From a bacterium (lineage in GTDB: Bacteria; Patescibacteriota; Patescibacteriia; JAGPKW01), in assembly GCA_021780535.1 (NCBI GenBank), contig JAJXYN010000009.1, positions 150,538 to 214,537 of the forward strand: a stretch of DNA of 64,000 nt. The letters run 5' to 3'. Both the position numbers and the translations under genes were made by a program. The notes below the pieces were generated by a model that was not told the origin of the DNA, searched no databases, and saw only the letters and a program-made list of their open reading frames with translations. Shown one piece after another: positions 1,326 through 49,963 of this stretch. Every line of letters begins with the position of its first letter. The first letter of the stretch is position 1.

Positions 1326-1434
<109 letters not shown>

Positions 1435-1567
1435 CAATATTCTTCTTTAGTTTTTCAGTTATAGAAGACTTATAGACTTAAAATTAAATAGAGATTTAGA
1501 ATATATTTTAAAATTTGCTTGTAGCGTCTCAATATTAACCAATATATTGAATTTCATCATTATTGTG

Positions 1568-4534
<2,967 letters not shown>

Positions 4535-4949
4535 ACAAGAATAACGAAATTCTTGTTAATTCTCTCGAATGTTAAAAAACATATTTAAGTAACAATATAT
4601 GAGAAATTACATATATTAATTAATACTCTTTATACTCGCTTTTTCATAGGCAGACTTAATACCTATGAAAAAATATTCTAAATTCACTCTCTATTTAATT
4701 TTTAATCTACAAATCTTTAACAACTGAGTTTAGGCTAAAATATTTTTTAGACTATGTCAAATGTTAAATTTTATGACAATAAAAAATAACCCGTGGCATT
4801 TATTATTATAAATTGTGGTAATAATAGCAAATGCTTAGAGGTTATTAAATAAAACTTGGAACTATATAACTTAAGCGTTCTAATTTTTCTCCCTACTTCT
4901 TCTTTTTTCTTATTTTTGGATGTTAACTATTATAGTTCATAAAAAAAAA

Positions 4950-6258: not shown

Positions 6259-7110
6259 CTATTTTCCTATTGTTAATTTTGCTACTTTTATTGCTGATTC
6301 TTTTGTTTTTGTGCTCGCTATAAACCCATTAGCATGACAGAAAAGAAAATCTTTAATACCAGTTAATTCAAATAACTTTTCTGCTGATTCACCTCTCCAA
6401 TCTTCTTTTAGCTCAACCCTACTTTCAAATGAGTTTAGTTCTTTTGGAATCATTCTTATCATCCATTTTTCTTTATTTTTTTCTGGATAAATTATTATAA
6501 GATTTTCTGTTTTTACAGTTTCTTCTTGCCAATTACAATAAACATCTAAGATTATAATCTTATCAACGGCTTCTTTAATTGCTTTATCTACTATTTCTTT
6601 TGAAAGCAAAATTGCTTTTTCTTTTTCTATTCTTCTTAATATTATTGCTTCGGCAATTTTTACAATTTTTATAAATTCTTTATCATAATTTATATTTTCA
6701 TTCCAATTAGGATTAAATAATCCAAAAATTTCTGGGATTGATATTTTTAAATTATTATTGTCAGGGTTATAACCATTGTCTATTGCATCTATATATTTAA
6801 TAAAATTTTCATCTATCCTATTAACAATTTCTTCTGATCCACACAATTTAATACCAAATTTTTTCCAAATCAAACCAAAAGCTGCATAAGGGTAGCCATC
6901 TTTTCTAGCACCAGCATTATTATATTGATGATGATCAAAATATTTTTCTCCATCATATTTTCCACTAACATCAAAAACTATATCTCCTTTTTCAAAATAT
7001 TGTTCTTCTCTTGTTCTTTTTATTTTTGCAAATTTAAATATTAGTTTTAAAGTAGCCGCTGAGAATATATCGTCTGCATGAAATGAATTGTTGTGAGTTA
7101 CAAGAAGCAT
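6259..7110 (-). CDS. MYG1/UPF0160 family metal-dependent hydrolase
   Basis: N-terminal THNNSFHADD motif (family consensus HNGxFHxDE) and overall length typical of the family. Confidence 0.65.
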   Translation of the reverse strand: MLLVTHNNSFHADDIFSAATLKLIFKFAKIKRTREEQYFEKGDIVFDVSGKYDGEKYFDHHQYNNAGARKDGYPYAAFGLIWKKFGIKLCGSEEIVNRIDENFIKYIDAIDNGYNPDNNNLKISIPEIFGLFNPNWNENINYDKEFIKIVKIAEAIILRRIEKEKAILLSKEIVDKAIKEAVDKIIILDVYCNWQEETVKTENLIIIYPEKNKEKWMIRMIPKELNSFESRVELKEDWRGESAEKLFELTGIKDFLFCHANGFIASTKTKESAIKVAKLTIGK

Positions 7111-7178: not shown

Positions 7179-8516
7179 TTAATATTCTATCATATATTTT
7201 GTTTTATCACCTTCTATTCCTAAAAACAAGAAGAAAATTATCAAACCAAAAGTTAGTGTTATTATGAAATGATCTAATATCCCAAACAATAAAATAGCTA
7301 TAAACGGTATCATTATTTTCACTTCTTTATTTACTATTAATTTAAATATTATCAACCCAATAAATGCTAATAAACCAAATATGCCAGTTTCTAAAAATAT
7401 TAATAAATATATATCATGAATTGGTTGTAAATCCCATGTATTTAAATTTTTGTTTTGATTATATTTATAAATTGTATAATTTCCAATTCCAACTCCTGTT
7501 AAATATTTTTGTTCAATATAATTCTTGAAATCTTTTAATTGGCCCAGCCTTTCATTTGTTGATTTTGTAACTAATCTATTATTTACATCTGTTCTTGATG
7601 CTAATAAATCAGATGCTGGTAAAGATGTTGATAATATTATGAATATTAAAACTATAAATATACTTAAATTATAATTTATTTTTTTGTTTATAATATCCTT
7701 ATTTTTTATATGTATAAATATTTCATACATTAGGAATAATATAAATGAAATTATAAATATAAATATTGCTGTTCTTGAAAATGTAAAAATTAACCCAATA
7801 AAATTTATTCCAAAAGCATATATTAGATATATCATCTTAAAATCTATCCTACTTGTTTCTAATAAATTTTTTTCTTTTTTGTGCTCTAAGATCTTAAATA
7901 ATATAAAAATTAATCCAATTAATAAAAATAAACCAAGCATATTAGGATGAGGAAATAAGCCATAACTTTTTAATATTCTTCCAAAACCTCCTTCTATAAC
8001 ATATGTACCTAGATTAAACGGGAGCTGTTCCGATACACCAATATATTTATTAGCTGATATTGATTGCATTATAAATTGGTATATTGATATAAATCCTTGA
8101 ATACTTGAACTTAATATAAAAGAACTTATAAACCATTCCATTTTTATTTTATTTATGAAAATAATAAATGAAAATGATGAAAATATTAATATTTTTATAA
8201 AATTATACACTGCAACTGTCTTGTCTGGAGCAAAAAATATTGAAATAAATATTGAAATATTAAATAACGATAATAATAAAATAAATATTTTTGACTTTTT
8301 GTCTATTATTGTTTTGTTTTTTATTGAATATATTATCCCATACGCTATAAAAAATATAATTAATATATCTATCACATATAATGATATAGAGCCATACTCA
8401 AAAAAATTATTATTTATATTCTGTATCATTAAAAAATATCTTGTTTGTATTGGCAACAAAACTACTATTATAAGAAATAATATATTAAAAATTTTTGTTG
8501 TAAAAATGTTTTTCAT
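7179..8516 (-). CDS. O-antigen ligase (Wzy_C)-like polytopic membrane protein
   Basis: About 10 predicted TM helices, a large periplasmic loop, and an FSRTAIF motif typical of the O-antigen ligase/Wzy_C domain. Confidence 0.55.
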   Translation of the reverse strand: MKNIFTTKIFNILFLIIVVLLPIQTRYFLMIQNINNNFFEYGSISLYVIDILIIFFIAYGIIYSIKNKTIIDKKSKIFILLLSLFNISIFISIFFAPDKTVAVYNFIKILIFSSFSFIIFINKIKMEWFISSFILSSSIQGFISIYQFIMQSISANKYIGVSEQLPFNLGTYVIEGGFGRILKSYGLFPHPNMLGLFLLIGLIFILFKILEHKKEKNLLETSRIDFKMIYLIYAFGINFIGLIFTFSRTAIFIFIISFILFLMYEIFIHIKNKDIINKKINYNLSIFIVLIFIILSTSLPASDLLASRTDVNNRLVTKSTNERLGQLKDFKNYIEQKYLTGVGIGNYTIYKYNQNKNLNTWDLQPIHDIYLLIFLETGIFGLLAFIGLIIFKLIVNKEVKIMIPFIAILLFGILDHFIITLTFGLIIFFLFLGIEGDKTKYMIEY

Positions 8517-9446
8517 TTATTTTATTCTTTCTAAGAAAATATTGTTATAAATTCTTCTGTTATCATTGTCGTGTAATTTTATTATCAAATCATCTACCAT
8601 TACATCTTCTGAATTATTTTTTTGTATTTTATCTTTTATACTTTGTGGGAAGATTTTGATTTCTATAATTTTAAAAAATTTCTCCAATATATTAATAGAG
8701 AATATTTTACTAATTTTTCTAGCTATTTTTTTATAAATATTATTTTGCACTATTCTTTTATATCCCATTTTATGTCCAAAAATATTTGGTAAATATTCTT
8801 TTATCCAATTGTTTTCATTAATAAATTTCTGATAGATATTACTTGGATCAAATATTGGAACGGCTTGACTTACCCAATACAAAAAATGAGCATCTTTTTT
8901 TGAACAAACTTTTTGTAAATTTAGATCTTTTTGATCAACAAAAATACTTAAACAAATTTTATCTTTTTTTGTTTTTTCTGTTGGTCTTAAACCTAAAATT
9001 TTGGCTATAAATGCTGATATAAATCTTGATGCCCATATTTTATTTTTTCTAGATATTATAAACAAATCTATATCACTTTCATTTCTGGAATTATCTATGG
9101 ACATATTGTTTGATATAAATATTGATTTAAAACATGAAAAATTTGAAATTAGTTTTACAAACTTAATCCCTTTTTTATACTTATTATAAGATGTTATGTA
9201 GTTACTTTTTCTTTTGTTTATTATTTCTTCTCTATTTTTTAAAAAATAAAATGATTCTTTTTTTTCTATTTTACTTTTTATTAACTCCCTTGTTTCTAAT
9301 GTATTTATAATTTCTTTTAAACTACAACTTTCTTTTGAATATAAATTTTTCCATATTTCAAAACTTGTTAAAGGAAAATCAAAAATATCGAAGTAAATAA
9401 TAGTACTAAGTATATCTTTTTCTAAATTGGTAATTTTATCAGACAA
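8517..9446 (-). CDS. Nucleotidyltransferase-domain protein
   Basis: Central NESDIDLFIISRK matches the Pol-beta-type nucleotidyltransferase motif (SDIDLhh). The rest is unassigned. Confidence 0.45.
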   Translation of the reverse strand: MSDKITNLEKDILSTIIYFDIFDFPLTSFEIWKNLYSKESCSLKEIINTLETRELIKSKIEKKESFYFLKNREEIINKRKSNYITSYNKYKKGIKFVKLISNFSCFKSIFISNNMSIDNSRNESDIDLFIISRKNKIWASRFISAFIAKILGLRPTEKTKKDKICLSIFVDQKDLNLQKVCSKKDAHFLYWVSQAVPIFDPSNIYQKFINENNWIKEYLPNIFGHKMGYKRIVQNNIYKKIARKISKIFSINILEKFFKIIEIKIFPQSIKDKIQKNNSEDVMVDDLIIKLHDNDNRRIYNNIFLERIK

Positions 9447-9641
9447 TTTGGCTTGAATTTAAAATTTAAATTAAAAACTGAAAAAACCAAAATTTAAAAC
9501 AAAGCTAAAAACTAAATTTTAAAACGAAATTCAAATTAAGTGTGTTTTAATTTTTGATTTTAAAATTTGAATTTGTTTTGGTTTTTGGTTTTTTTAGTTT
9601 TAAAATTTTATCTAAACCTTCTTTTGGCGACATTTTATCAT

Positions 9642-9683
9642 AAAAAAAAGAAGGCTGCCTTGTGTATAACTTACAGCCTTCTT
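9642..9683 (-). terminator. Rho-independent terminator downstream of the 9717..10826 gene
   Basis: 10-bp perfect inverted repeat aagaaggctg / cagccttctt with a 16-nt loop. On the minus strand it is followed by a run of eight T. Confidence 0.6.
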
Positions 9684-9716
9684 ATAAATCTCTAAATCTC
9701 CAAAAATTTAGTTATT

Positions 9717-10826
9717 TTATTTATTTTCATTATCTTTTTGATCTTTATCATCTTCATCTTCCTCAAAAAGATTGTCTATGAATTTTTTTACTTTTTCTTT
9801 GTTTTCTGAAATTAGCCAAAATATAAGTAATATTATAGCTAATATGAGTAATATTACCCCTATTAAAATTGACTTATCTTGTTTTTCTTTCTGATTTGGC
9901 AAATTATTACTTGTCTTCTTGTTTTCTTTTATGTTTGTCTTTGCAGAATTTGTTTTATTTATAGATGAATTTACGTCTGCTTTTTTAACATTTTCCTTAC
10001 TAGTATTTTTTGTTTCTGTATTATTACTTTCTGTTTTAGTTGTTGAATCTTTTTTTATTTCTTGCGTTGGTAAATTCTGTTTTATATTTACGGCGAAATA
10101 TATTATTTTTGATTTAGAAACTATATTTGTATCTTTTGTATAACTTAATATGTATGCTTTATGGTTTCCATTTTTTAAGCCTTTAACTGCTAAAGCAAAA
10201 TAAGAAGAAGATTTTGTTCCGTATAATGAATCTATAAATCTTACTTTTTTATCATCAACATATACTTCTATTTTATTCCCAGTATTACCATAACCTCTTA
10301 TAACGTATATAGATGGATCATCTGCGTAATAATATGGCGTCAAAATATCTGGCGTTGAATATCCGCTTACTACGTTAAATTCTACTATTCCACTAGATCC
10401 ATAATCTTTACCATCTTTAAACGATACAAATTGAACATTGTGTTTTCCTAGGGTTAATTTTTGTATTGGCTCATAATAAAATCCTGAAATGCCTGTTTTA
10501 CTTGGCCAAACATTTAAAGTTGTTCTATATTTTCCATCTATATAAACTTTTATATTATAACCAGATTTAACTTCTCCTCTTATTATCTGTCCGCCATCTA
10601 AATTTTCATTCGATTTTGGGCTAGTTACTGTAGGAATAATTGAATCTACTGGTTTTTCATTTTCTACTTTTAATATTGGAATAATCCCTATATTGTTAAT
10701 TTTTGTTTCATTTGAAAAAGGAGCTACGTCAACAATGATATTTTCTGCAAAAACTTGGCTTGTGCTAAATAAAGAAAAAACGAAAACGAAAACAAGAAAA
10801 GCAATAATTTTATTATTTTTATTCAT
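9717..10826 (-). CDS. Secreted, C-terminally membrane-anchored repeat protein
   Basis: N-terminal signal peptide (MNKNNKIIAFLVFVFVFSLFSTSQVFA). Two internal repeats (IRGEVKSGYNIKVYIDGKY and IRGYGNTGNKIEVYVDDKK). Polar S/T/N/K-rich stalk. A single C-terminal TM helix followed by an acidic tail. Confidence 0.55.
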   Translation of the reverse strand: MNKNNKIIAFLVFVFVFSLFSTSQVFAENIIVDVAPFSNETKINNIGIIPILKVENEKPVDSIIPTVTSPKSNENLDGGQIIRGEVKSGYNIKVYIDGKYRTTLNVWPSKTGISGFYYEPIQKLTLGKHNVQFVSFKDGKDYGSSGIVEFNVVSGYSTPDILTPYYYADDPSIYVIRGYGNTGNKIEVYVDDKKVRFIDSLYGTKSSSYFALAVKGLKNGNHKAYILSYTKDTNIVSKSKIIYFAVNIKQNLPTQEIKKDSTTKTESNNTETKNTSKENVKKADVNSSINKTNSAKTNIKENKKTSNNLPNQKEKQDKSILIGVILLILAIILLIFWLISENKEKVKKFIDNLFEEDEDDKDQKDNENK

Positions 10827-11096
10827 AAAAATATAAATAAATTGCTTAACTAACGACCTTTCTCCTTGTAGATGTTGAGCCCGCCGTCGCTAACGCTAAG
10901 GCGAACGAGAAAATGAGAAGATGAGATTTAATACTCAACTTCTTAATTTCTTAACTTTTTGCTTTTAAAGTACAAAGTTTGAATTTCAACCTTATAATCC
11001 AGTGCTGACAATATTATTCATTCTGCACTACATTACAATATTTATAATCGTTTAGCAATGCAGTTATACACAGATTTTTATTTTATTAAAAAATAT

Positions 11097-11406
11097 CCAC
11101 TTTTTACTTCATATAACTTAAACAATATTTAGATCCGCCTTCGTCAAGACTACGGCGAATACAATCCGCCTTTGCTAAGGCTATGGCGAATACAATCCGC
11201 CTTCGTCAAGACTACGGCGGGTAACCAGCTTTCACTAAAGTTTCAGCTGGTGAAAGAGGAGAGAGATTTTTTAAATCTCAGCTCCAAAAAATTACATGCA
11301 AATATTGATTGTGTAAGATTTATCTTACAACTATTACTACAACGTCTTTTTAAGGCGCTGAGATTTAGCAATATTGTTTTTATTTTTATATGAAGTAAAA
11401 AATGGA
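11097..11406. repeat. MITE-like element: 21-bp terminal inverted repeats enclosing three GC-rich hairpin units
   Basis: tccactttttacttcatataa (11097-11117) reappears inverted as ttatatgaagtaaaaaatgga (11386-11406). Inside are three tandem about 31-bp units tccgccttcgtcaagactacggcgaatacaa / tccgcctttgctaaggctatggcgaatacaa / tccgccttcgtcaagactacggcgg, each a ccgcc...ggcgg hairpin. Further palindromes present (ccagctttcac...gtgaaag, aatctcagc...gctgagatt). The listed ORF 11172..11393 is an artefact of this element. Confidence 0.55.
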
Positions 11407-11571
11407 TGTTAAATTAAATTATTAATTAACTTATTGATAGTCATCGTTGAGAAATTTTAAAACTGAAAAACTGAAAAATTCAAAACAATTTTTAGATACT
11501 TAATGAACGTAGTGAATATAATTATCTTATACTCTTTAGAGTATAAAACATCTAAATTTTAAAACTGAAAT

Positions 11572-12324
11572 ATGTACAAAGATGTATTTATCGAACTTGG
11601 ATTAAGCGATAATCAGGCCATTATTTATGAATATTTATTAAAAAATGGTGCTCAAACTGCAGGGAATATAATAAAAAATACCCCATTAAAAAGGGGTTTA
11701 GTTTACAATATCTTAGATGAATTATGCGAAAATAAGCTAATTACTAAAAAAATTAATAAAAATAATAAAGTTGCTGTATTTTCCCCTGAACATCCAGAAA
11801 AATTAAGAGAATATTTAGAAAACAAAGAAAAAGCCTTAGGTAAGGCTAAAAATACGCTAGAAAGCAATTTATCCTCTATTATTTCTGATTTTAATCTTGT
11901 TAGTAATAAGCCTGGGGTGAGATTTTTTGAGGGAGATGAGGGTATAAAAAAAATTGCAGAAGACATGTTAAAGTCTAAAACTCCTATATATACTTATATG
12001 GACATGAATAGTGTTAGTAAATTCATACATGATATTGATAAATATTTTGAAAAAGAAAAAATTAAAAAAGGTTTAAAACAAAAAATACTAGTAATAGATT
12101 CCAAAATAGCTCATAAAGAGACTAAAAGTCCTAATGATAAAATTACTGAAGTGAAATACATAAAAATGAAACCTTTTAAATCTATTACTGAGATATACGA
12201 CAACAAAATAGTTTTTATCAGTCTATCCGAAGACCAAAAAAGTAAAGTAAGTATAATTATAGAGGATAAACAAATATATGAAATGCAAAAATCTTTATTT
12301 GAATCTTATTGGGACATGGTTTAA
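11572..12324 (+). CDS. TrmB-family transcriptional regulator
   Basis: N-terminal winged-helix domain (LGLSDNQAIIYEYLLKNGAQTAGNIIKNTPLKRGLVYNILDEL) matches the TrmB HTH. The C-terminal effector-like domain is unassigned. Confidence 0.6.
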   Translation: MYKDVFIELGLSDNQAIIYEYLLKNGAQTAGNIIKNTPLKRGLVYNILDELCENKLITKKINKNNKVAVFSPEHPEKLREYLENKEKALGKAKNTLESNLSSIISDFNLVSNKPGVRFFEGDEGIKKIAEDMLKSKTPIYTYMDMNSVSKFIHDIDKYFEKEKIKKGLKQKILVIDSKIAHKETKSPNDKITEVKYIKMKPFKSITEIYDNKIVFISLSEDQKSKVSIIIEDKQIYEMQKSLFESYWDMV

Positions 12325-14174
12325 GCTGCCTCACTAAAAATTTCTGTTTTTACTTCCTGTCTTTCTATATCTTTTTCTAAAATTAAATAAATAAAGTTGT
12401 TATATTTTATTGATCTTGTGATGCAATAACTATTTTTATTTATTTCGCTTTCCAGCAAATCTAGATTATTCTCCATAGCTTCTTTTGTTGTTTGTTCTTT
12501 AAATTCCAATATTTTAAAACCCTCTCCACCCAGAGATATTTCTATTTGTTTTATAATTTCTTCTTCTGTTGTTTTTCTAAATTTCCATTTTTTATTTTTT
12601 TGAACTTTTATATCAACTGTATTTTCTCTTCCTTTTTGTTGATTTTTATTGATTTTATTTATAACAAAATCATATGAAGGTTTTAAATACTCTTCACACA
12701 TCTCAATAAATGCATCTGCGTATATATCGTCTGTCTCTCTTTTAAAAACAGTATCTACTAAAGACTTTGCTATACCATAGCCATCAGACCTTGCACTATA
12801 ATGATTTGCGAATTTTACTCTTTCTTCTTTTTTTGTAAAAGTAAAAAATACTATAATCTTATATTTTCCTTCTTTGTTTTTTAATTTATATTGAAATATC
12901 TCTGAATTATTACCACCAAATAATATTTTATCAATTAGAGTATTTAATAATTCTTTAATTTCTATAGATGAGTGTTTTTTTGAAAAACTATTATAACAAA
13001 TACTTAACATTTCTATTACCTCCTCTATTTTGTCCTTTTCTTCTTGACTAAGCTCTTCTTTAAAATGTTCTTTTATAAAATTATCTGGGTTCAAGAATGG
13101 GTTCTTTTTTAAATCTATATCATTTATAATTTGTTTTAAATAATTTGATAGTTTATTTTTAATTTCATTTTTATTTATCTCCTTAGAAAATTCTACCGAT
13201 GTTTGAGATATAAAATCAACGCCCTCTAATTCATTGAAATCTATATCGACACCACTTTGTCTCATGGTTTTGTACACATTACCCCGAAATTCTATTTCGG
13301 CTTCATATTTTTTTAATAAGCTTTGTATTTTATATATATCTTTTTTTTCTACAGATTCAGAAAATTCTAATAATATATTTGCACCTTTTCTTAGAATATT
13401 TTTAACTATATTATTTATTTGTTCATCTTTTAATTCTATTTTTTTATCTTTAAATATGCTTTGTAATTCTTCTCTGATATTTTCTGCTCTATCTATTAAA
13501 TTTGAATATATTTCAAATATTTCATCTGCATTTTCTAGTTCGCCTAATTCTAATATTTTATCCCCAAATTGTTCCCCTAATTCGTCTAGAGATAAGAAGG
13601 TTTTAAATCTTAAATTTTTATTTACATTTAAATAATCTTTATTTTGATATTTTAAAAATTTTTTTAATTTAAAATAATCATTTGAAAAATAATTTTCTCT
13701 GCTTTTTTTAAAAAAATTTAGAAATTGAACTTGCGTTTCTATACTGTGCAACCTTAATTTTATACCAAGTTCTTTTTCGGCAAAAATAAAAATTCTCAGA
13801 TCATAAAGCTCTTTTATCTTTTCTTCTTTTATTTTCTTAACAACAACTTTATGATTTGTATGAAGATCTGAAAAGTATTTTTGTTTATACTTACTACTTA
13901 AATTTGGTATATAAGTATAGAAAATTGGTTCATTGTCTTTATATAAAATTAAAATATTATTGTTCACTAAAACCGGGAAATCATAATCAAATTTTTCTTG
14001 AAGTTCTTTATCTTCACAAAAAATTTTTGCATCTTTAATAAATTCTTTACTAAGTGGAATCTCTAAAAAATTTTGGAAATTTTCCATACTAAAATAAGAT
14101 GCTAATGATCCATAATTTAAATCATCAATATCATTATCAATGTTATCAATTTTTACTTTTGAGAATTTTTCCAT
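12321..14174 (-). CDS. Hypothetical protein (617 aa)
   Basis: Long open frame. No motif recognised confidently. Confidence 0.4.
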   Translation of the reverse strand: MEKFSKVKIDNIDNDIDDLNYGSLASYFSMENFQNFLEIPLSKEFIKDAKIFCEDKELQEKFDYDFPVLVNNNILILYKDNEPIFYTYIPNLSSKYKQKYFSDLHTNHKVVVKKIKEEKIKELYDLRIFIFAEKELGIKLRLHSIETQVQFLNFFKKSRENYFSNDYFKLKKFLKYQNKDYLNVNKNLRFKTFLSLDELGEQFGDKILELGELENADEIFEIYSNLIDRAENIREELQSIFKDKKIELKDEQINNIVKNILRKGANILLEFSESVEKKDIYKIQSLLKKYEAEIEFRGNVYKTMRQSGVDIDFNELEGVDFISQTSVEFSKEINKNEIKNKLSNYLKQIINDIDLKKNPFLNPDNFIKEHFKEELSQEEKDKIEEVIEMLSICYNSFSKKHSSIEIKELLNTLIDKILFGGNNSEIFQYKLKNKEGKYKIIVFFTFTKKEERVKFANHYSARSDGYGIAKSLVDTVFKRETDDIYADAFIEMCEEYLKPSYDFVINKINKNQQKGRENTVDIKVQKNKKWKFRKTTEEEIIKQIEISLGGEGFKILEFKEQTTKEAMENNLDLLESEINKNSYCITRSIKYNNFIYLILEKDIERQEVKTEIFSEAA

Positions 14175-14350
14175 ATTTATTTATATTATTCACATTCTAT
14201 CATAAAATCACAATCTTTTTAACTTATATACTTATCCACAGAAAAATTAATTAGAAATTAATAGGTACTCTGCTAGAATACATCTATTATAATTTTCATT
14301 AGGTGTCAGGCGTGCCAGACACCTACAAAAGAATAATTAAATTATTATTT

Positions 14351-16704: not shown

Positions 16705-17289
16705 ATGACAAAATTATTTTTAAAAAAATTAAATATTTTAAAACAACATGGAATTGAAAATAAAATTCCAAATATTTCTTATGAAATTGGAATGTTTTTA
16801 AATATGATTATTAAAAATAAAAATATTAAAAATGTCTTAGAGATTGGGACTGCAAATGGTTATTCTACTATATGGATGGCTGAAGCATTAAAAGCAACTG
16901 GTGGCATGATAACAACTTTTGAAATTTCTATCCCATCTTATAAAGAGGCTCAAGAAAACTTTAAGAAATTTAAATTAAATAAATATATTGATTCTATATT
17001 CGAAGATTTTTTAAAGGAGGATAAAATATTAAAAAATAAAAATATTAAAAAGTTTGATCTTATTTTTATTGATGGACAAAAAAATAAAACTTTAGATTTT
17101 TTTAATAAAGCTAAAAAATTATTAAAAGATGGTGGAATTATTATTGTTGATGATGTTATAAAATTTAAAAACAAAATGTCTGAATTTTATAAATATATTG
17201 AAAAGCAAAATAAATTTTATTATATTATTTTACCTATTGATATTGATGATGGAATTATGATGATAATAAATAAAAAATTGCATAAATAA
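16705..17289 (+). CDS. Class I SAM-dependent O-methyltransferase (family 3 / YrrM-like)
   Basis: VLEIGTANGYSTIWMAEAL (motif I) and DLIFIDGQK (post-I acidic motif) are typical of small caffeoyl-CoA-type O-methyltransferases. Confidence 0.6.
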   Translation: MTKLFLKKLNILKQHGIENKIPNISYEIGMFLNMIIKNKNIKNVLEIGTANGYSTIWMAEALKATGGMITTFEISIPSYKEAQENFKKFKLNKYIDSIFEDFLKEDKILKNKNIKKFDLIFIDGQKNKTLDFFNKAKKLLKDGGIIIVDDVIKFKNKMSEFYKYIEKQNKFYYIILPIDIDDGIMMIINKKLHK

Positions 17290-17317
17290 AAAATACGGAA
17301 AAATTATTCCGCAGTTT

Positions 17318-17605
17318 TTATTTATTTTGTTTTGCTAATTCTTGTATTTCTCTAATTTTCTCTTCATTTTTTTTTGCTATATAAAAAACAAATTCCCCGA
17401 ATTTATCTTCTTCTTGCAACATGTAATTACCTGTTTCGCAAGCTTCTGTTGGATTTTCTAGACATTCTTCTTGTGATGGTTTGAAATATGATTCATAAAC
17501 AAATCTTACATCTTCTGAAGATAAATTTAAAATCTCTGATGCTTTTTTATAAACTTCTTTTCTACTTATTTCACCGTCTTTATATTTTTTGTATATTGAT
17601 TCCAT
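17318..17605 (-). CDS. Hypothetical small protein (95 aa)
   Basis: Open frame only. Confidence 0.35.
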   Translation of the reverse strand: MESIYKKYKDGEISRKEVYKKASEILNLSSEDVRFVYESYFKPSQEECLENPTEACETGNYMLQEEDKFGEFVFYIAKKNEEKIREIQELAKQNK

Positions 17606-17679
17606 ATTAATTTAAGTTAAAATTTATTTTTCACACTTAGTGTCAAATAAATTAATCTGACATTTATGTTTAGTATATA

Positions 17680-20184
17680 TTATATTACGAAATTTATCAT
17701 CTTATTTTTTACAAATATTATTTTCTTAATATTTTGTCCTTCTAAATATGAAATTAATTTTGTATGATGCACATCTACATTGCCTACAGAATCAACTTTA
17801 ATTTGTAATGCTTCCAAAATATCATCTTGTGTTTTATCTTTATTTATTTTTATTATATCTCTCATTTTTCCATTTATAGAAACTACAAAATTAATATCTT
17901 CTTCTTGTATTAATTCTTCATTGTATTTTGGCCAAGTAGAGATATGTATTGATTGATTGTTTGGGTTTATATTATTCCAAATTTCTTCTGTAATATGAGG
18001 CGCAAATGGTGCAAGTAATTGTAAATAAGTTTTAAATAAATTTTTGCTTATTTTTTCTTTTGAAGAAATATGATTTAAAAGAATCATTAATTGAGCAAGG
18101 GCTGTGTGATATGATACATTCTCTATGTCTTCTCCTACTTTTTTAATTGTTTTATGCAATAATGTTATCGTTTCTTTATCGTCGTCATCGCTAGAGATTT
18201 CTTTATCTTGAAGTAACCAAACTCTGTTTATAAACCTATTTACACCATTTATAGCTGTTGTTGACCAAATTCCACCTTCACTATAAGGTCCCATAAACAT
18301 TATATAAGTTCTCATTGTATCTGCTCCATATTGTTCTATAACATCATCTGGATTAATAACATTACCCCATCTTTTACTCATTTTTCTTCCATCTTCTCCA
18401 GCTATAAGACCGTGCTGAACTCTTCTTTTATAAGGTTCAGAAACCGAAACAACTCCTGCATCATACAATACCTTATTCCAAAATCTTGAATAAAGTAGAT
18501 GAACTGTTGTATGCTCTGCCCCACCAAAATATATGTCAACTGGCATGAAATGTTTTAATTTTTCTTGAGATGCTAAAGCTTTATCATTTTTTGGGTCTAT
18601 ATACCTCAAAAAATACCATGAAGACCCTGCCCATTGTGGCATTGTATTTGTTTCACGCTTTGCTCCACAACCACATTTTGGACAAGTTGTATTTACCCAA
18701 GAATCTATTGCCGCAAGTGGAGAATCCCCAGTCCCAGTTGGTTCATAATTTTCAACTTCTGGCAATAATAGCGGTAATTCATTTTCTGGAACTGGAACGT
18801 TGCCACATTTTTCACAATGAACTATCGGAATAGGTTCACCCCAATATCTTTGTCTTGAAAATAACCAATCTCTGAATTTATAATTTATTTTTCTTTTACC
18901 AAATCCTTCTTTTTCTGCTTTTTCTAACATAATTCTTCTTGCTTGCTCTGATGTCAAACCATTAAATTCTTTTCCGGAATTACAAACTCTTCCATCATAG
19001 TTTCCAGCCGACATCTCACTTAATAATTTCTCATCTTCTGATAATTCAAAATAATTACTATCTATTGATCCAGTTTTTTTTGAAATAACGATTTTGCTTT
19101 TTAAATTATATTTTTTAGCAAACTCCATATCCCTTTCATCATGTGCTGGTACTGCCATTACAGCTCCTGTTCCATAAGAACCTAAAACATAATCAGCAAC
19201 CCATATTTCTAACTTTTCATTATTAAATGGGTTTATTGCAAATATTCCTTCAAGTTTTACTCCTGATTTATCTTTATTTAAATCTGTTCTTTCTAAATCT
19301 TTTTTATTTTTTGCTATTTCAATATATTTTTCTACTTCAGAAATATTTGTTATTGACGATTTTAGATTATCAATAATTTTATTTTCTGGAGCCAAAACAA
19401 CATATGTACAACCAAAAATAGTATCCAAACGTGTTGTAAATACTGTTATTTTTTCCGCCTTTGCCAAGGCTTCGGCGGACACGTTAAATTCTATTTCGAC
19501 ACCCTCTGATTTTCCTATCCAATTTTTCTGACTTGTTTTTATATATTCTGGCCAATTTACATCATCTAAATCTTTTATCAATCTTTCTGCGTATTCTGTA
19601 ATCTTAAGAAACCATTGTTTCATATTTCTTTGTTCTACGTTACTATCGCATCTTTCACATTTTCCATTTATAACTTCCTCATTTGCAAGGCCAGTCTTGC
19701 ATGATGGGCACCAATTAATAGGAGCTTCTTTTTCGTAAGCAAGCCCCATTTCAAATAATTTTAAAAATATCCATTGAGTCCATTTATAATATTTTGGATC
19801 TGTTGTGTCTATTGTTCTTGACCAATCAAAAGAACATCCGAATTTCTTAATTTGTTTTATAAAATTATTTATATTTTCTTGTGTAAATTCACTTGGATGT
19901 TTTTTGTTTTTTATTGCAAAGTTTTCTGCTGGTAATCCAAAAGCGTCAAAACCCATTGGAATTAAAACATTATAACCATTCATTCTTTTGTATCTAGCAT
20001 AAACATCTACTGCGTTATGCCCTTTTGCATGACCAACGTGCACACCTGTTCCAGATGGATAAGGAAATTCAACCAATGTATAAAATTTTTTCTTTGTTAA
20101 ATCGTCAGATGTTTTATATATTTCTTGTTTCTCCCACTCTTCTTGCCATTTTTTTTCTATTTTTTTATGATCGTATTTTTTCAT
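17680..20184 (-). CDS. leuS: Leucine--tRNA ligase
   Basis: HVGHAKGH (HIGH motif), the CP1 editing region, KMSKR (KMSKS), and an overall 834-aa bacterial LeuRS architecture. Confidence 0.93.
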   Translation of the reverse strand: MKKYDHKKIEKKWQEEWEKQEIYKTSDDLTKKKFYTLVEFPYPSGTGVHVGHAKGHNAVDVYARYKRMNGYNVLIPMGFDAFGLPAENFAIKNKKHPSEFTQENINNFIKQIKKFGCSFDWSRTIDTTDPKYYKWTQWIFLKLFEMGLAYEKEAPINWCPSCKTGLANEEVINGKCERCDSNVEQRNMKQWFLKITEYAERLIKDLDDVNWPEYIKTSQKNWIGKSEGVEIEFNVSAEALAKAEKITVFTTRLDTIFGCTYVVLAPENKIIDNLKSSITNISEVEKYIEIAKNKKDLERTDLNKDKSGVKLEGIFAINPFNNEKLEIWVADYVLGSYGTGAVMAVPAHDERDMEFAKKYNLKSKIVISKKTGSIDSNYFELSEDEKLLSEMSAGNYDGRVCNSGKEFNGLTSEQARRIMLEKAEKEGFGKRKINYKFRDWLFSRQRYWGEPIPIVHCEKCGNVPVPENELPLLLPEVENYEPTGTGDSPLAAIDSWVNTTCPKCGCGAKRETNTMPQWAGSSWYFLRYIDPKNDKALASQEKLKHFMPVDIYFGGAEHTTVHLLYSRFWNKVLYDAGVVSVSEPYKRRVQHGLIAGEDGRKMSKRWGNVINPDDVIEQYGADTMRTYIMFMGPYSEGGIWSTTAINGVNRFINRVWLLQDKEISSDDDDKETITLLHKTIKKVGEDIENVSYHTALAQLMILLNHISSKEKISKNLFKTYLQLLAPFAPHITEEIWNNINPNNQSIHISTWPKYNEELIQEEDINFVVSINGKMRDIIKINKDKTQDDILEALQIKVDSVGNVDVHHTKLISYLEGQNIKKIIFVKNKMINFVI

Positions 20185-39946: not shown

Positions 39947-40813
39947 ATGGAAAAAGAAACAAAATTAGAAAAAATATTACCATTTAGATGGGCTGGCGGT
40001 AAATATTATGCTTTAAATAAGCTAAAACAATTCTGGGAAAATTTTGAACATGATGAATATCGTGAACCGTTTTTTGGTGGTGGTGCTGTATTTTGGGCAA
40101 AACCAAAAGTTAAATTTAATTGGATAAATGATATAGATAATGGTTTAATAGATACCTTGGAATTTATACAAGATGATGAAAAAAGAATTGAACTTATAAA
40201 ACTATTTGAAAATGAACAAGAAGCCACAAAAGAGAAATATTTAAAAATAAAAGCACTTAATCCAAAAACAAAACTGGAATCGGTTTATAAATATTATTAC
40301 TTAAATAGAACTTCTTTTAGTGGTAAAATGAAAAATCCTTCATGGGGTTATAGGCCGAAAAGAAGTTTGCCTCCTATTAGATGGAAAGAAAGAATAATAC
40401 CTTGTGGTGAAAAATTAAAAGATGTAAAAATAACAAATTTAGATTTTGAAAAAGTAATATTATCTAAGGCTATTGGTAAAAAGGTTCTTATGTTTTTAGA
40501 TCCGCCATATTATAATGCTAAACAAGAAAGCCATTATACATTTTCCTTTAAAAAAGAAGATCATGAAAGATTAGCATTGGCTTGCAAAAAAACAAAACAT
40601 AGTTTTTTCTTAACATACGATGATTGTGAAGAAATTAGGAAGTTGTATTCTTGGGCAAATATATTAAGTTTAGAATTTTATTATAGACTTGATAACTCTA
40701 AAGATAATAATAACAAAAGAAAAGTTGGTTCAGAAATTATTATTACAAATTATAAATTAGAAAATATAGATAAAGAAATTCTTAAACATGCAACAATTAA
40801 AATTGATAAATGA
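39947..40813 (+). CDS. Dam-family (D12 class) N6-adenine DNA methyltransferase, copy 1
   Basis: FRWAGGKYYALNKL (Dam motif X/I), EPFFGGGAVFW (FxGxG), FLDPPYYNA (motif IV DPPY) and a C-terminal EIIITNYK typical of DpnM/Dam-like enzymes. Confidence 0.8.
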   Translation: MEKETKLEKILPFRWAGGKYYALNKLKQFWENFEHDEYREPFFGGGAVFWAKPKVKFNWINDIDNGLIDTLEFIQDDEKRIELIKLFENEQEATKEKYLKIKALNPKTKLESVYKYYYLNRTSFSGKMKNPSWGYRPKRSLPPIRWKERIIPCGEKLKDVKITNLDFEKVILSKAIGKKVLMFLDPPYYNAKQESHYTFSFKKEDHERLALACKKTKHSFFLTYDDCEEIRKLYSWANILSLEFYYRLDNSKDNNNKRKVGSEIIITNYKLENIDKEILKHATIKIDK

Positions 40814-41678
40814 TATAGTAGATAAATCTTATGCAAGTATCCAAAAATTGGATATTTCTAAAATAAAAAAATGTAAGACAGATAAAACTCGTCCATTTTT
40901 AAGATATCCTGGAAGTAAATATAATGCTTCTAAATATATAATGCCATTTTGGGATAGTATAGAATTTAACGAATATCGTGAACCTTTTTTAGGAAGCGGG
41001 GCGATTTTTTTTAAAATGCCTAAAGTTGAATATTCTTGGTTAAATGATATAGATGATGATTTGATAAATTGTTTTTCTATAATTGCAAATGAAAAAACTA
41101 GACTAGATCTAATAAAAAAAATTGAAAATTTAAAACCATCAAAAGAGTTATTTGATGATATAAAAAATACAAAACCAATAAACTCTATTGATAAAGCTTA
41201 TAGATATTTTTTAATAAACAGAATGGCTTATGGTGGAATTATGAATAAGCCAAATTGGGGGTTTCATCCAACTAAAAGCGTACAACCTGACAAATGGGGA
41301 GATAGAATAATGCAGGCTGGAATAAAACTTGAAGATAATGTAAAAATAACTAAAAAATCATATTTAGATGTGATAAATGCTGAATCAAATAATAAAGTTT
41401 GGCTATTTGTAGATCCACCATATTTTAAAGCTGATCAAAAAAGAGCTTATGCTCATTCTTTTAATTATAAAGACCACATAGAGCTACTAAATTCACTAAA
41501 AAAGACAAAACATTATTTTTGTTTGACTTATGATAATTGTGAAGAAATAAAAGAGCTTTATTCTTGGGCAAATATTTATGAAATAGAATGGATGTATCAT
41601 ACAGCTAATTCAAAAGTTGCTTCTAGAAAAATGGGTAAAGAATTAATTATATCTAATTATAAAATTCATCAGGTATAA
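40788..41678 (+). CDS. Dam-family N6-adenine DNA methyltransferase, copy 2
   Basis: RYPGSKYNASKYI, EPFLGSGAIFF, FVDPPYFKA and ELIISNYK. It is a paralogue of the upstream gene, which it overlaps by 26 nt. Confidence 0.8.
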   Translation: MQQLKLINDIVDKSYASIQKLDISKIKKCKTDKTRPFLRYPGSKYNASKYIMPFWDSIEFNEYREPFLGSGAIFFKMPKVEYSWLNDIDDDLINCFSIIANEKTRLDLIKKIENLKPSKELFDDIKNTKPINSIDKAYRYFLINRMAYGGIMNKPNWGFHPTKSVQPDKWGDRIMQAGIKLEDNVKITKKSYLDVINAESNNKVWLFVDPPYFKADQKRAYAHSFNYKDHIELLNSLKKTKHYFCLTYDNCEEIKELYSWANIYEIEWMYHTANSKVASRKMGKELIISNYKIHQV

Positions 41679-42903
41679 AATCTAACTTGTATGGGCCAGC
41701 CTCTCTAAACACAGAGTCTTCTGCAATAATATTAAATCCATTAGATTTCCCATAAGAGTCTATATCTGGAATAAACTCTATTTCTTTTTTATTATTTAAA
41801 TTTAATTTTAATTTTATATTTGGGTATAAAACATCTGAATACTCTTTTTTATTCCAATCTAATTCTTTAAAAAAATCACCTTTATTTATTTTATAATGCA
41901 TTGGTAAATCTTTTACTGGTAATAGTATAAAATGCAATTTATTGTCTAGTATAACTCTAGGTAATTGATGATTTGATATTATTACAGAAACATAATCAAG
42001 TTCATTTCTTTTGTAACCACGATTAGGAAATCTTCCATGTGTACCCATTATCTCAACACCAATTTTATTATTATCAATATCACACATATTTTTTGATGTG
42101 CCTTTTGTTTGTATTTTTATTTTATAACCATTTTTATTTTCTATTGCTACATCATATTTTGGATAAGGCCCCTCTGGTTGTATTACTTTTAAATCCTGTT
42201 TTCTCAAATATTCTTCAAACCAAAATTCTTTTAGATTTCCTTTTAAACCCATTACAGCTGCTCTAAAATATTCTGGTTTACACAACATTTCTATTATTTC
42301 ATAATCCTCCAAATATGTTTCTTTGCTTAAAAATGGCAACAAGCTATTTTTTGGAGCTATTCTATCATCTATTATTTTACCATCTATACTGTCTAGTCCT
42401 ATGACTCCCCAATTATTCAACCTCTTATTTTCCCATTCTATTTTAGCCGGATCCGCAAGATATCCATCCCACGAATTATGTTTTGGTATTTCATTATGAG
42501 GTATTATAAAAATTCCAGATTCTGGATGTTGCAAAACCAAAAAATCAAATGTTTTTTCAGATGAGTTATATAGGTTGTGTGGACGCTTTTCTAATCCATG
42601 AGTCTTATGCAAGGCTACTCCTACAAATTTATCTTTAGTTGTTGAGTTTTTAACAGGAGTTTTTAGTTGTAATTTTAAATTATTTACATATACATCTACA
42701 TCACTATCTCCCTCACCATCTTGTATGTTAATGTTATTAATATTTTTTCTTAATATTTTTTTAAAATATTCTTCAAAAGCTATGCCCTTTATTGGCCTTA
42801 GTATGTTTGCATCTTTTTGAACTATATTATCTATCATACTCCAATCTATATCATTAAGCTCTATTATTTTTTCAAATCTTAATTTTAGTTCTTCAGTTAT
42901 CAT
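41653..42903 (-). CDS. Candidate Type II restriction endonuclease partnering the two Dam-like methyltransferases
   Basis: 416-aa ORF convergent with, and overlapping, the second methyltransferase. Two PD-(D/E)xK-like segments with Q-x-K variants (DSDVDVYVNNLKLQLK and YDVAIENKNGYKIKIQTK). The call rests mainly on gene context. Confidence 0.5.
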   Translation of the reverse strand: MITEELKLRFEKIIELNDIDWSMIDNIVQKDANILRPIKGIAFEEYFKKILRKNINNINIQDGEGDSDVDVYVNNLKLQLKTPVKNSTTKDKFVGVALHKTHGLEKRPHNLYNSSEKTFDFLVLQHPESGIFIIPHNEIPKHNSWDGYLADPAKIEWENKRLNNWGVIGLDSIDGKIIDDRIAPKNSLLPFLSKETYLEDYEIIEMLCKPEYFRAAVMGLKGNLKEFWFEEYLRKQDLKVIQPEGPYPKYDVAIENKNGYKIKIQTKGTSKNMCDIDNNKIGVEIMGTHGRFPNRGYKRNELDYVSVIISNHQLPRVILDNKLHFILLPVKDLPMHYKINKGDFFKELDWNKKEYSDVLYPNIKLKLNLNNKKEIEFIPDIDSYGKSNGFNIIAEDSVFREAGPYKLDFIPDEFYN

Positions 42904-42980
42904 AATTAGTTAAAATTATAAATTATTCTATATTTATAATATTTATGTTAGCATAAAGATAATAATATACAATAAAAATT

Positions 42981-43613
42981 ATGAAAAATGGAACAATAAT
43001 GATAGGTGGATCAGACTCTAACGATAATTTTAGAAAAGTATTTGATTTAAAAATCACAAATGGTTTTCCTATAATATCAACTACTGATAAAGATTTATCA
43101 ATAGAATGTAATAATAAAATAATAAATCATACCAATATAAATCACATATCTATCCCGGCAGATTTAAATATTCATCTTACTGGAAAACAAAATGAACATT
43201 ATTTTTTTATCGAAAGAATTACAAATAACGGATTATTAAATAGTGATTCATATAATATTTTTAGTTTATTTAGTATGCCAATAGAAAATTATGATTTTCC
43301 AGTTGGGACATGGAATCAGGCTGAAATATTTGGAATTAAAAAAGACGGCCTATTTAATAATAAAACCGGTATGTTTGTTGAGTTTTTTGTTTTTAAAAAT
43401 AGTTTTGATTTAAATACCTTGAATGCTTTATATCCATTTAAAGATAGCTCCATGAGAGAGCCTTATATTCTTGGGCCATATAATTTTAGTGAAATTATAA
43501 GAAAGGATAGAAAAAATATAAAACCAGATTTTAAATTTGTAACAAGAGTTGGTTTTTACGAAAACACAGACAATGAATCAAAAATTATAATTCCTTTTGA
43601 TATAAGAGGTTAA
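42981..43613 (+). CDS. Hypothetical protein (210 aa)
   Basis: Open frame between the R-M module and the recombinase. Confidence 0.4.
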   Translation: MKNGTIMIGGSDSNDNFRKVFDLKITNGFPIISTTDKDLSIECNNKIINHTNINHISIPADLNIHLTGKQNEHYFFIERITNNGLLNSDSYNIFSLFSMPIENYDFPVGTWNQAEIFGIKKDGLFNNKTGMFVEFFVFKNSFDLNTLNALYPFKDSSMREPYILGPYNFSEIIRKDRKNIKPDFKFVTRVGFYENTDNESKIIIPFDIRG

Positions 43614-44902
43614 ACTTCAATAATAATTTCCTTATTTTTTATTACAAATTTACTCTTAATGCATTCAGTCAATTGTTTCTTCTGTTCTAAGTTTCCATCT
43701 CTTAGAATAAACTTAGCATAAGTTCTCATATCAATAATATCATTATGACTATCTTCTTTAGATATCCCGAGCACGTTTCTTCTAAAGCTATTATATCTCT
43801 GTATTTCTTCTTCAATAGTTTTATTAATACCTAACTCATCAACTTTCAATTTATCTATTATCTCTATAAGTTGTTTAGTTACTTCTTCTTCTCTAATATA
43901 AGTATTCTTACAATCTCTATCTCTACCGTGGGAACATCCATAATATATGTAATGCAATATTTTTCCATTTTTAAGTTTCTTTCTTTTATGTTCTCCAACC
44001 ATACCTGAGCCACATAATCCACATTTAAATAATCCTGAAAAAGTAAATTCATAAGAATTTCCATTTGAGAAACATGTATCTTTTCCAATCTTTTCTTGTA
44101 CTAAGTCATATATTTCTTTTGTAGTTAAAGTTTCGTGTTTTCCTTGATACCAATTGCCACTATCTTTAGGATATTCAAACATTCCATAATAGAATGTATT
44201 TTTTATTATTCTAAAGATATTTCCTAAACTCATCATTTTTCCATTTACTGATTTGTAGTTAATACTTTTTAACCAATCTAATATCTTTCTACCAGAACAA
44301 TTATCATAAGCTATTTTTCTAAACATTTCTGTTATTATCGGTCCTCTATATGGGTCTACATTTACATATCCTTTTTTATCTACATTCTTTTCATTTAGAT
44401 ATCCAACCGGTGCTTGTCCTATCCATAGACCCATACCAACTTTTGCTTTTAAACCTCTTTTTACATTTATACTTTTATTATCATTTTCTAGTTTAGCTTG
44501 ACCACCAAGTATCATTAACATAAATTTATCATTTGGAGTATTTTTAAATACTTGATTATATGTTCTTATTTCTTTAAGTCTATGGTTATCTATTAAGTCT
44601 ACAATCATTCCTAAGTCTCCAGCATTTCTTGAAATTCTATCAGAATTCCATGTAAGTAGAGCATCAAACATTCCATTATTTATATCTCTTATTAGAGAAT
44701 TAAAAACCTCTCTTTTTCCTGATTCTTTTGCTGAATGACTTTCTCTTCTAACCTCTACTATATTAAGTCCTTCTTTTTCTGCTATCTGTGTCATTTCTTT
44801 AATCTGAGAGTCTATTGAAAGAGCTTGTCTTTCATCTTCTTCTGTTGATTTTCTTGCATAAAGACAGTATTTTAATGGTTTTTGTTCTAATATTTGTTCC
44901 AT
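43610..44902 (-). CDS. Large serine recombinase (resolvase/invertase-type catalytic domain + recombinase domain + zinc ribbon)
   Basis: N-terminal YARKSTEEDERQALSIDSQ (catalytic Ser region), ...DALLTWNSDRISR, and a C-terminal CGLCGSGM...YYGCSHGRDRDC zinc ribbon. Confidence 0.85.
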   Translation of the reverse strand: MEQILEQKPLKYCLYARKSTEEDERQALSIDSQIKEMTQIAEKEGLNIVEVRRESHSAKESGKREVFNSLIRDINNGMFDALLTWNSDRISRNAGDLGMIVDLIDNHRLKEIRTYNQVFKNTPNDKFMLMILGGQAKLENDNKSINVKRGLKAKVGMGLWIGQAPVGYLNEKNVDKKGYVNVDPYRGPIITEMFRKIAYDNCSGRKILDWLKSINYKSVNGKMMSLGNIFRIIKNTFYYGMFEYPKDSGNWYQGKHETLTTKEIYDLVQEKIGKDTCFSNGNSYEFTFSGLFKCGLCGSGMVGEHKRKKLKNGKILHYIYYGCSHGRDRDCKNTYIREEEVTKQLIEIIDKLKVDELGINKTIEEEIQRYNSFRRNVLGISKEDSHNDIIDMRTYAKFILRDGNLEQKKQLTECIKSKFVIKNKEIIIEV

Positions 44903-44904
44903 AT

Positions 44905-49954: not shown

Positions 49955-49963
49955 ATTGTTTTA

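Follow-up and report, generated by a model that had tools for sequence, protein, structure and literature searches.

The locus described here raises the question of what kind of element has left GC-rich hairpins both between genes and inside a gene in DNA of about 25% G+C. The DNA analysed, called the window throughout, is a 64-kb stretch of a Patescibacteria genome, identical in sequence to contig DAIEHF010000006.1 of assembly GCA_027355865.1. Three hairpin units lie in tandem within a 313-bp intergenic module, and further copies stand nearby and inside leuS, the gene for leucyl-tRNA synthetase (LeuRS). A sequence-only reading had taken the module for an element resembling a miniature inverted-repeat transposable element (MITE), and the hairpins for a dispersed family of small palindromic repeats. 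The best-supported description from the present computational analysis is hairpin DNA resembling repetitive extragenic palindromes (REPs), with an unusually wide distribution and sequence conservation and with three sites in the window. We put at roughly 60% the probability that the GC-rich units belong to a selfish, REP-like hairpin repeat of 30 nt, found with the same sequence across many phyla and in uncultivated phages.

The copies in the window, and the gene that contains the last of them, are as follows.

10880 to 10909, plus strand: solo decayed copy, CCCGCC GTC GCT AA CGC TAA GGCG AACGAG (30.5 bits)
11134 to 11163, plus strand: hairpin unit 1, TCCGCC TTC GTC AA GAC TAC GGCG AATACA (covariance model R1, 41.0 bits)
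11165 to 11194, plus strand: hairpin unit 2, TCCGCC TTT GCT AA GGC TAT GGCG AATACA (covariance-model match)
11196 to 11225, plus strand: hairpin unit 3, TCCGCC TTC GTC AA GAC TAC GGCGG GTAAC (R1, 44.2 bits)
19454 to 19483, plus strand: copy in leuS, TCCGCCTTTGCCAAGGCTTCGGCGGACACG (44.0 bits)
17680 to 20184, minus strand: leuS, encoding LeuRS of 834 aa (Pfam tRNA-synt_1 and related families; relatives)

Sites of the form CCGCC-N14-GGCG occur five times in the window, always on the plus strand (10881, 11135, 11166, 11197 and 19455); the pattern matches number seven if both strands of two perfect palindromes are counted, against 0.00 in 100 dinucleotide-preserving shuffles. An unfiltered covariance model returned exactly the same five copies in the 64 kb, all plus; a further 10 kb or so of the contig yielded no other. 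The three tandem units stand head-to-tail within 11133-11225, and TRF reported 2.8 copies of a 31-nt unit at 11133-11219 (score 139). Unit 1 is a GTC/GAC inner-stem variant with a decayed tail, whereas unit 3 has a complete basal stem. Unit 2 differs from the other two at five positions, mostly with pairing preserved, and in one near-identical strain its GGCG has become GGTG. The solo copy lies 55 nt upstream of the ATG of a minus-strand gene of 369 aa and is missing from the orthologous spacers of two relatives (L136 and L137). The recurrence of the hairpin away from the module, and within leuS, had thus been seen correctly from the letters alone, with the leuS coordinates then given (19449-19472) about 6 nt off.

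In the spacer of L137 between RecQ and a 367-aa gene (17263-17707), a split hairpin copy that the covariance model missed can be read by eye as tCCGgCCTTCGCtAA, about 25 nt of AT-rich sequence and AAGaaGCTTTGGCGGAtAAac; this suggests an earlier visit of the hairpin family to the same spacer.

The family consensus, written for the plus strand of the window, is Y-CCGCC-TTC-GCC-AA-GGC-TWC-GGCGG-R-CARG, 30 nt in length. A 23-nt degenerate pattern derived from the window copies was scanned against one genome per species (596 Gb in all). It matched at least 120 loci in species-representative genomes, where no more than about six are expected from base composition. Among the matches listed are Acidobacteriota, Verrucomicrobiota, Planctomycetota, Bacteroidota, Bdellovibrionota (including a complete Bdellovibrio genome), Elusimicrobia, Lentisphaerae, Armatimonadetes, Marinimicrobia and others, together with Alphaproteobacteria, cultured Bradyrhizobium included. 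Complete isolate genomes with the motif include Bradyrhizobium sp. LMG 9283 (NZ_CP120691) and Bdellovibrio sp. HCB288 (NZ_CP178619). Patescibacteria among them are Shapiro-, Roizman-, Collier- and Komeilibacteria and Saccharibacteria. The same pattern was found in 39 IMG/VR viral contigs, one of which, a T7-like structural module, encodes a head-tail connector and holds several hairpin copies. In some other genomes several copies occur in a single 8-kb locus. Judged by these matches, the hairpin family spans at least a dozen bacterial phyla as well as phages. The dispersed palindromic family proposed earlier is therefore real, but it is not peculiar to a reduced Patescibacteria genome.

A BLAST search with the consensus against plasmids (7.3 Gb, PLSDB) and cultured phages (2.3 Gb, INPHARED) gave only partial chance matches, and Rfam models run on 18 loci from other phyla detected nothing at the motif. 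Neither the hairpin sequence nor its peptides appear in the texts and supplements of two REP surveys (PMC3733652, PMC6006769). A wider literature search by sequence string and keyword found no description of the motif; subscription journals were largely outside its coverage, so a prior description is possible.

Copies in Bacteroidota, Verrucomicrobiota and the candidate phyla radiation (CPR), for example L036, L040, L065, L068, L071, L092 and L115, are often flanked by simple-sequence runs such as ccctcagccctcag, cactgaacactgaa, caatatcccaatatc and ccagtggtcagtgg. In Acidobacteriota a hairpin of another type (CCGCCGTAGCTTTAGCGGAGGCGG) often comes after the copy.

A position matrix built from 155 distinct copies showed conservation from -1 to +29 and random flanks, giving the unit sharp 30-nt boundaries. 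Its layout is a GC basal stem of 6-7 bp, a 3x3 internal loop, a variable apical stem-loop with a stem of 2-3 bp and an unpaired 4-nt tail, CA(A/G)G. Read from the other strand, the unit has a 5' foot, CYTG, in place of the tail, a GNA/GNA internal loop and a CTTG apical loop. Pairing could be followed at position -1:+25, which the search pattern left unconstrained: T-A was found 45 times, C-G 38 times, T.G 11 times and C.A 9 times, and copies in which G24 is shifted by one extra base follow the same -1 pairing rule. At 10:15 the counts were C-G 133, T-A 11, T.G 1 and C.A 0. Extra copies recovered with covariance model R1 have basal stems CCACC/GGTGG, CCTCC/GGAGG and CCGCT/AGCGG. The apical stem-loops of these copies are variable in both length and sequence, and the loop of one encloses a further hairpin. 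These compensatory changes in the stems show that the hairpin is selected as a structure. The near-equality of T.G and C.A at the free pair gives no sign of either strand acting as RNA.

An alternative pairing of GCCTT with AAGGC around a 4-nt loop, which would make the unit a GTAG-foot REP, was rejected; its pairs do not covary, and the GTC/GAC variants disrupt it. GTAG itself is present only within the hairpin of the A variant.

How the unit inserts can be seen in Bradyrhizobium sp. 138, where a host repeat reading GGATTGCTT and then CGCTGCGCTCGCAA is found both empty and filled with exactly 30 nt. The filled form was found in four other Bradyrhizobium-type genomes. No consistent target duplication or general flanking inverted repeat was detected among 153 copies. 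The unit is thus shown to insert as exactly 30 nt and without target duplication.

The Bradyrhizobium host repeat (L121, 4429 and 7546, both minus) is a different, longer palindrome, GCAATCCAG...CTGGATTGCTTCGC...CTCGCAATGACG, seen in uninterrupted and unit-interrupted forms. It is itself widespread in alphaproteobacterial loci.

Copies are found singly, in arrays, nested within other palindromes, near gene 3' ends and in frame within genes. Diverged head-to-tail arrays of 2-4 units occur in Bacteroidales, in Chitinophagaceae and at a Patescibacteria locus beside tRNA genes, which makes the window triplet typical of the family. In phage contigs many copies begin directly behind a TGA stop. The unit spans 10 codons and is stop-free in six frames in its T variant and in five in its A variant. 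In-frame copies lie in long open reading frames (ORFs) of low-GC CPR genomes: a Komeilibacteria glycosyltransferase, a Collierbacteria protein and a Shapirobacteria membrane protein. A Roizmanbacteria LeuRS (L108, JANLIS010000055.1) carries two (6899-6933 and 7967-8000), neither at the site used in the window leuS; one encodes PASAKASAGK, close to the N-terminus, and the other SAFAKASADK, which follows the VPGHDxRDxEFA motif.

The leuS copy of the window sits in the loop just before the conserved VFTTRxDT motif. The coding strand reads FNV-SAEALAKA-EKI in frame, the 30-nt unit occupying aa[c gtg tcc gcc gaa gcc ttg gca aag gcg ga]a. It agrees with the cross-phylum consensus at 28 of 30 nt and keeps the non-palindromic tail. 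Alignment with LeuRS orthologues, the check proposed with the first reading, bore out its view that SAEALAKA is an in-frame addition to a short variable loop. Sixty LeuRS relatives align cleanly around NWIGKSEG...VFTTRxDT, and relatives are without the segment. The closest of them, Patescibacteria with no more than 77% identity, have a 6-aa loop (ENSNEK or ENSNDK) where the window protein has the 10-aa SAEALAKAEK. Other LeuRS lineages have unrelated insertions in the same loop, so the site tolerates inserts. The alignment supports the SAEALAKA segment as a lineage-specific in-frame insert in a variable loop, where a near-consensus unit may have replaced part of the 6-aa surface loop.

Among described repeats, REPs and the REPINs formed from them come closest. 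They too are imperfect palindromes of 20-65 nt with a GC-rich basal stem of about 7 bp, an internal loop of 1-3 nt and a second stem (PMC6006769), and have an unpaired tetranucleotide at the hairpin foot. They are mostly extragenic, near gene 3' ends, form clusters and make no target duplication. The 'long' REP layout of foot tetranucleotide, basal stem, bulge and second stem is shared with the end hairpins of IS200/IS605 (PMC6006769). In-frame intragenic REPs have also been described, some of them in tRNA synthetases (PMC3733652), although the peptides of the present unit are missing from the published list. The arrays differ as well, being head-to-tail where REPINs are inverted doublets.

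Several points weigh against a REP-like repeat. REPs have a GT[AG]G or CGTC foot and are described as species-specific (PMC3733652, PMC6006769), whereas the foot here is CYTG and the sequence is conserved across at least a dozen phyla and phages. Copy number is low, with three sites in about 74 kb of genome. In leuS the net change is +4 aa, or +12 nt rather than +30, so that the event was not a simple insertion into the loop of present-day relatives; without the 30-nt unit the loop would be shorter than theirs, which implies either that an insertion was accompanied by the loss of about 18 nt or that the loop receiving it was already shorter. The placement near gene 3' ends, which favours a REP-like repeat (median distance 67 nt, against 134 nt to 5' ends; within 50 nt in 44 of 93 cases against 15 of 80), was measured with crude longest-ORF gene calls. 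There was no orientation bias relative to flanking genes (same/same 22, opposite/opposite 21), nor relative to local GC skew, a coarse proxy (67 against 77, p=0.45). No RAYT (REP-associated tyrosine transposase) gene was found nearby: no Y1/RAYT transposase (PF01797) was detected among 20/21 previously unannotated mid-size ORFs of the window, and a search of 1.3 Mb of loci by tblastn with an IS200 TnpA query, a weak test, was negative. Nor did any gene family recur beside the motif when the 1039 ORFs lying no more than 1.5 kb away were clustered; the largest cluster covered five loci.

Other systems share some of these features. The ends of IS200/IS605 elements and of their gene-less derivatives, the palindrome-associated transposable elements (PATEs), have a subterminal 20-25-nt mismatched hairpin, a 5' guide tetranucleotide, no target duplication and a single-stranded DNA logic (PMC6006769), but here there is a single hairpin type, no left/right-end pair, no tnpA or tnpB and no detected strand bias. 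Rickettsia palindromic elements (cited in PMC3733652) are selfish palindromic DNA set in frame in surface loops of essential proteins in a reduced, AT-rich genome, while the present unit measures 30 nt and crosses phyla. A replication-strand bias is characteristic of IS200/IS605-type elements. RPE-1, one of the Rickettsia elements, is 100-150 bp long and confined to one genus. The GC clusters of yeast mitochondrial DNA are likewise short, palindromic and mobile, contrast by their GC content with a very AT-rich genome and sometimes lie in genes, but they belong to a eukaryotic organelle, are unrelated in sequence and have boundaries not conserved at 30 nt.

Two further readings of the tandem units were rejected. 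A clustered regularly interspaced short palindromic repeat (CRISPR) array does not fit the 31-nt period, with an 8-nt constant linker between abutting units and no spacers. ToxI-type antitoxin repeats are also head-to-tail, intergenic and about 31-36 nt long, but no toxin gene of a type III toxin-antitoxin system was found (Pfam, PADLOC), nor a ToxN/AbiQ-like gene downstream, and the units are simple hairpins that also occur solo and in genes.

The possibility that the hairpin is instead a functional RNA module was also considered, for instance a hairpin bound by a protein, a stabiliser of mRNA 3' ends or a terminator-like structure, conserved through a conserved partner, with the triplet as a multivalent RNA. 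The stems covary while the internal loop stays conserved, and the reverse strand would present a GNA/GNA loop of the tandem sheared G.A type and a CUUG apical loop, both classic stable RNA motifs. The position of copies close to gene 3' ends, in phage contigs often immediately behind a stop codon, and the strong fold of the 313-bp module (z about -9 to -10) would also suit an RNA. However, orientation relative to genes is unbiased, the free pair favours neither strand, and in-frame copies occur in unrelated proteins, in several frames and both orientations. Copies are nested in other repeats and other hairpins in copies, no Rfam family was matched in the window or in the 18 loci of other phyla, and no U-tract follows the hairpins. 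An RNA function for the family is therefore considered unlikely.

The module that houses the triplet poses a question of its own, since the first reading had made it the mobile unit. Its parts and surroundings are listed below; no strand is assigned to them.

11077 to 14235: lineage-specific insertion of about 3.1 kb, from synteny and alignments with two relatives; boundaries approximate
11095 to 11116: left terminal arm, ATCCACTTTTTACTTCATATAA; pairing reaches 11092; single copy in the window
11120 to 11129: inner inverted repeat, left half, AAACAATATT; 10 nt, 100% complementary to 11370-11379
11224 to 11251: AT-rich hairpin ACCAGCT...AGCTGGT, read from the sequence and present in minimum-free-energy folds; alternative stem CTTTCAC/GTGAAAG
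11263 to 11366: right-hand domain; folds with z -3.0 (plus) and -5.7 (minus)
11318 to 11335: substitution cluster, holding all four substitutions (A>G, A>C, T>C, T>A) in 2044 aligned nt of two strains
11370 to 11379: inner inverted repeat, right half, AATATTGTTT; partner of 11120-11129
11386 to 11407: right terminal arm; pairing reaches 11410; outer end is a strain-level synteny breakpoint
11408 to 11451: strain-replaced segment of 44 nt; strain GCA_021833805.1 has at least 1.1 kb of other DNA instead

Inverted repeats of 22-25 nt do enclose three tandem hairpin units, as had been noticed, and bound a module at 11095-11407 (313 bp, or 313-319 bp depending on arm extent). The outer arms found by repeat search, 11092-11116 and 11386-11410, are 25 nt long and 92% complementary; the arm core up to the strain breakpoint is 11095-11116 and 11386-11407. 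The interior at 11224-11384 consists of AT-rich hairpins and one 10-bp long-range stem, AAATCTCAGC (11273-11282) with GCTGAGATTT (11357-11366), which encloses a hairpin GTAAGA/TCTTAC (11313-11328) and competes with a local hairpin GAGATTT/AAATCTC (11263-11279). The only coding capacity is a 73-aa ORF with no Pfam match. The whole module folds far better than shuffled sequences on both strands (z -9.2 and -10.6), the minus strand being the more stable (-119 against -104 kcal/mol). Such strong folding fits a nest of DNA palindromes as well as an RNA.

Strain GCA_021833805.1 is identical over 9364-11407 except for the four substitutions and diverges from 11408, precisely where the right arm ends on its outer side. 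From about 11452 onwards the strain is again homologous, on another contig, and the replacement DNA carries an unknown 246-aa ORF and a HicB/DUF1902-like gene. The substitutions are confined to 18 nt of one module hairpin, and two of them preserve or extend pairing: read from the sequence, 11318 A>G gives G.T with T11323 and 11330 A>C a new G-C pair with G11311. Contigs of other samples also break beside the module, and its left end is about 15 nt from the boundary of the lineage-specific insertion. The strain breakpoint, the substitution cluster and the contig ends together mark the module as a discrete DNA segment at a rearrangement hot spot, and the long palindrome itself may promote local rearrangements.

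A true MITE, that is, a non-autonomous transposon with 22-bp terminal repeats that acquired the hairpins and is served by a transposase elsewhere in the genome, would account for a non-coding, self-complementary 313-bp unit with 22-25-nt terminal inverted repeats, features in which the module resembles bacterial MITEs such as RUP, NEMIS/Correia, ERIC and Nezha. It would also account for a right end that coincides to the base with a strain breakpoint (11407/11408), for a left end close to an insertion boundary and for the several metagenome contigs that break alongside. However, neither the terminal repeats nor the non-hairpin interior has a second copy in the window or in about 10 kb more of the contig. 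The terminal repeats gave 11 matches in JGI metagenome contigs, all of them chance matches in AT-rich coding sequence, and no second copy in IMG/VR. In IMG/VR scans of the interior, the long-range stem gave two unrelated phage matches and the CCAGCT hairpin none; the collections searched may lack this lineage. There is no clear target-site duplication, the flanks being AT-rich and of low complexity and the short shared words TTAAA and ATCCAC ambiguous. No cognate transposase was found in the window, which encodes one tyrosine recombinase; the only transposase-named Pfam match, HTH_Tnp_1_2 (28.7 bits, cut-off 27.9), lies in a 135-aa ORF (48811-49218) and covers a helix-turn-helix (HTH) domain only. 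What does repeat is the 30-nt hairpin. The MITE-like element of the first reading was thus not upheld, a true MITE now seeming rather improbable, and the module is best described as a single-copy composite (nested) palindrome rather than a demonstrated MITE.

An equally doubtful proposal is that the 313-nt module is a small RNA gene, or a structured plus-strand leader running from an ancestral RecQ-side promoter towards the TrmB-like gene. A sigma-70-like site, CTGACA-18-TACATT (11005-11034, plus), points into the module from a block (about 10985-11076) that is kept in relatives up to the insertion boundary. The stems at 11224-11256, which exclude one another, look switch-like, and three strain substitutions (GGCG>GGTG, 11318 A>G giving G.U and 11330 A>C giving G-C) are compatible with plus-strand pairing. 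Promoter-like sites are nevertheless no commoner than in shuffled sequence (4 against 4.5), there is no terminator after the module, and the minus strand folds better, in the whole module and in the right-hand domain (z -5.7 against -3.0). No homologues were found in which covariation could be followed, and Rfam gave nothing over the module region, either at the gathering score or with E relaxed to 10, where the best match reached 19.5 bits (cut-off 100).

Mere compositional coincidence, with the leuS stretch as ordinary alanine-rich coding sequence, can be dismissed: peptides rich in Ala, Lys and Glu such as AEALAKA are common, and at one Acidobacteria locus (L018) the motif overlaps an apparently normal signal-peptide region, but five window sites against none expected, at least 120 genome loci against at most six, and a near-consensus leuS copy, tail included, in a segment that relatives lack leave it almost no room.

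The setting of the module is itself lineage-specific. It lies in a 745-bp spacer (10827-11571) between divergent genes, the 369-aa gene on the minus strand, whose product resembles a membrane or surface protein, and a TrmB-like HTH gene on the plus strand, which begins 346 nt downstream of the tandem units. In relatives L136 and L137 the 11077-14235 insertion is missing and RecQ directly adjoins the orthologue of the 369-aa gene. Besides the module, the insertion contains the TrmB-like gene (11572-12324, plus), the C-terminal 180 aa of whose product match nothing, and a 617-aa gene (12321-14174, minus) without a family match in Pfam, NCBIfam or PADLOC. In the minus-strand leader of the 369-aa gene, AGGAGAAAGGTCGTTA (10850-10870) is conserved between the window and two relatives (77% LeuRS identity) while the surrounding spacer is not; lying 35-50 nt upstream of the start codon, it is too distant from the ATG for a normal ribosome-binding site.

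Other observations concern the window at large. The 23S and 5S rRNA genes lie at 1326-4535 (minus) with no adjoining 16S gene within the window; the next feature upstream is a protein-coding ORF, and the rRNA genes appear unlinked. A match to LOOT RNA (RF03000; 71.9 bits, gathering score 46.4) at 46682-46816 (plus) stands just downstream of a 528-aa ORF (45029-46615), near the cumulative GC-skew minimum at about 45-51 kb, which may mark a replication origin. A mobile- or defence-looking block at 39947-58814 comprises two neighbouring D12 N6-adenine methylases (39947-41678), an N6_N4 methylase beside a small HTH_Tnp_1_2 protein (48811-49954), a tyrosine recombinase (51654-52586), a 1274-aa protein with a faint nSTAND NTPase match (53054-56878) and a TIR-domain protein (57777-58814).

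Returning to the REP-like repeat, its mobility could be explained if the unit moved as a single-stranded DNA hairpin, mobilised in trans by a structure-specific nuclease/ligase of the HUH Y1 (RAYT or IS200-like) type or by an unknown enzyme, with phages perhaps ferrying it between lineages. The architecture of the hairpin suggests a hairpin-specific HUH Y1 enzyme. Because a candidate mobilising enzyme is not encoded in the window, the copies there may be relics or imports. A bolder proposal, which we regard as tentative and would not bet on, is that the hairpin is a previously undescribed pan-bacterial, phage-borne mini mobile element with precise insertion, served by an unrecognised and widely shared hairpin-specific enzyme that is possibly phage-encoded. 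If so, it would rank among the smallest discrete insertion units known, conserved in sequence from Bradyrhizobium to Patescibacteria, and it would have colonised loops of essential proteins repeatedly, with three independent LeuRS sites in two CPR lineages.

In the usual view, REP-type repeats are passengers of particular lineages, linked to a cognate transposase, whereas here one 30-nt sequence recurs across at least a dozen phyla and phages. This points to either very efficient horizontal spread or a conserved machine that recognises the hairpin, and the sequence provides a concrete handle for finding such a machine. The unit adds 10 residues to essential, phylogenetically used proteins such as LeuRS, gives rise to spurious small ORFs with recurring peptides (SAFAKASADK, RLRQGYGGQ, RRSLGEGG and AEALAKA) and, in metagenome-assembled genomes, marks places where assemblies break and hot spots of rearrangement. 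For the Patescibacteria, it means that even reduced genomes still receive and tolerate selfish DNA.

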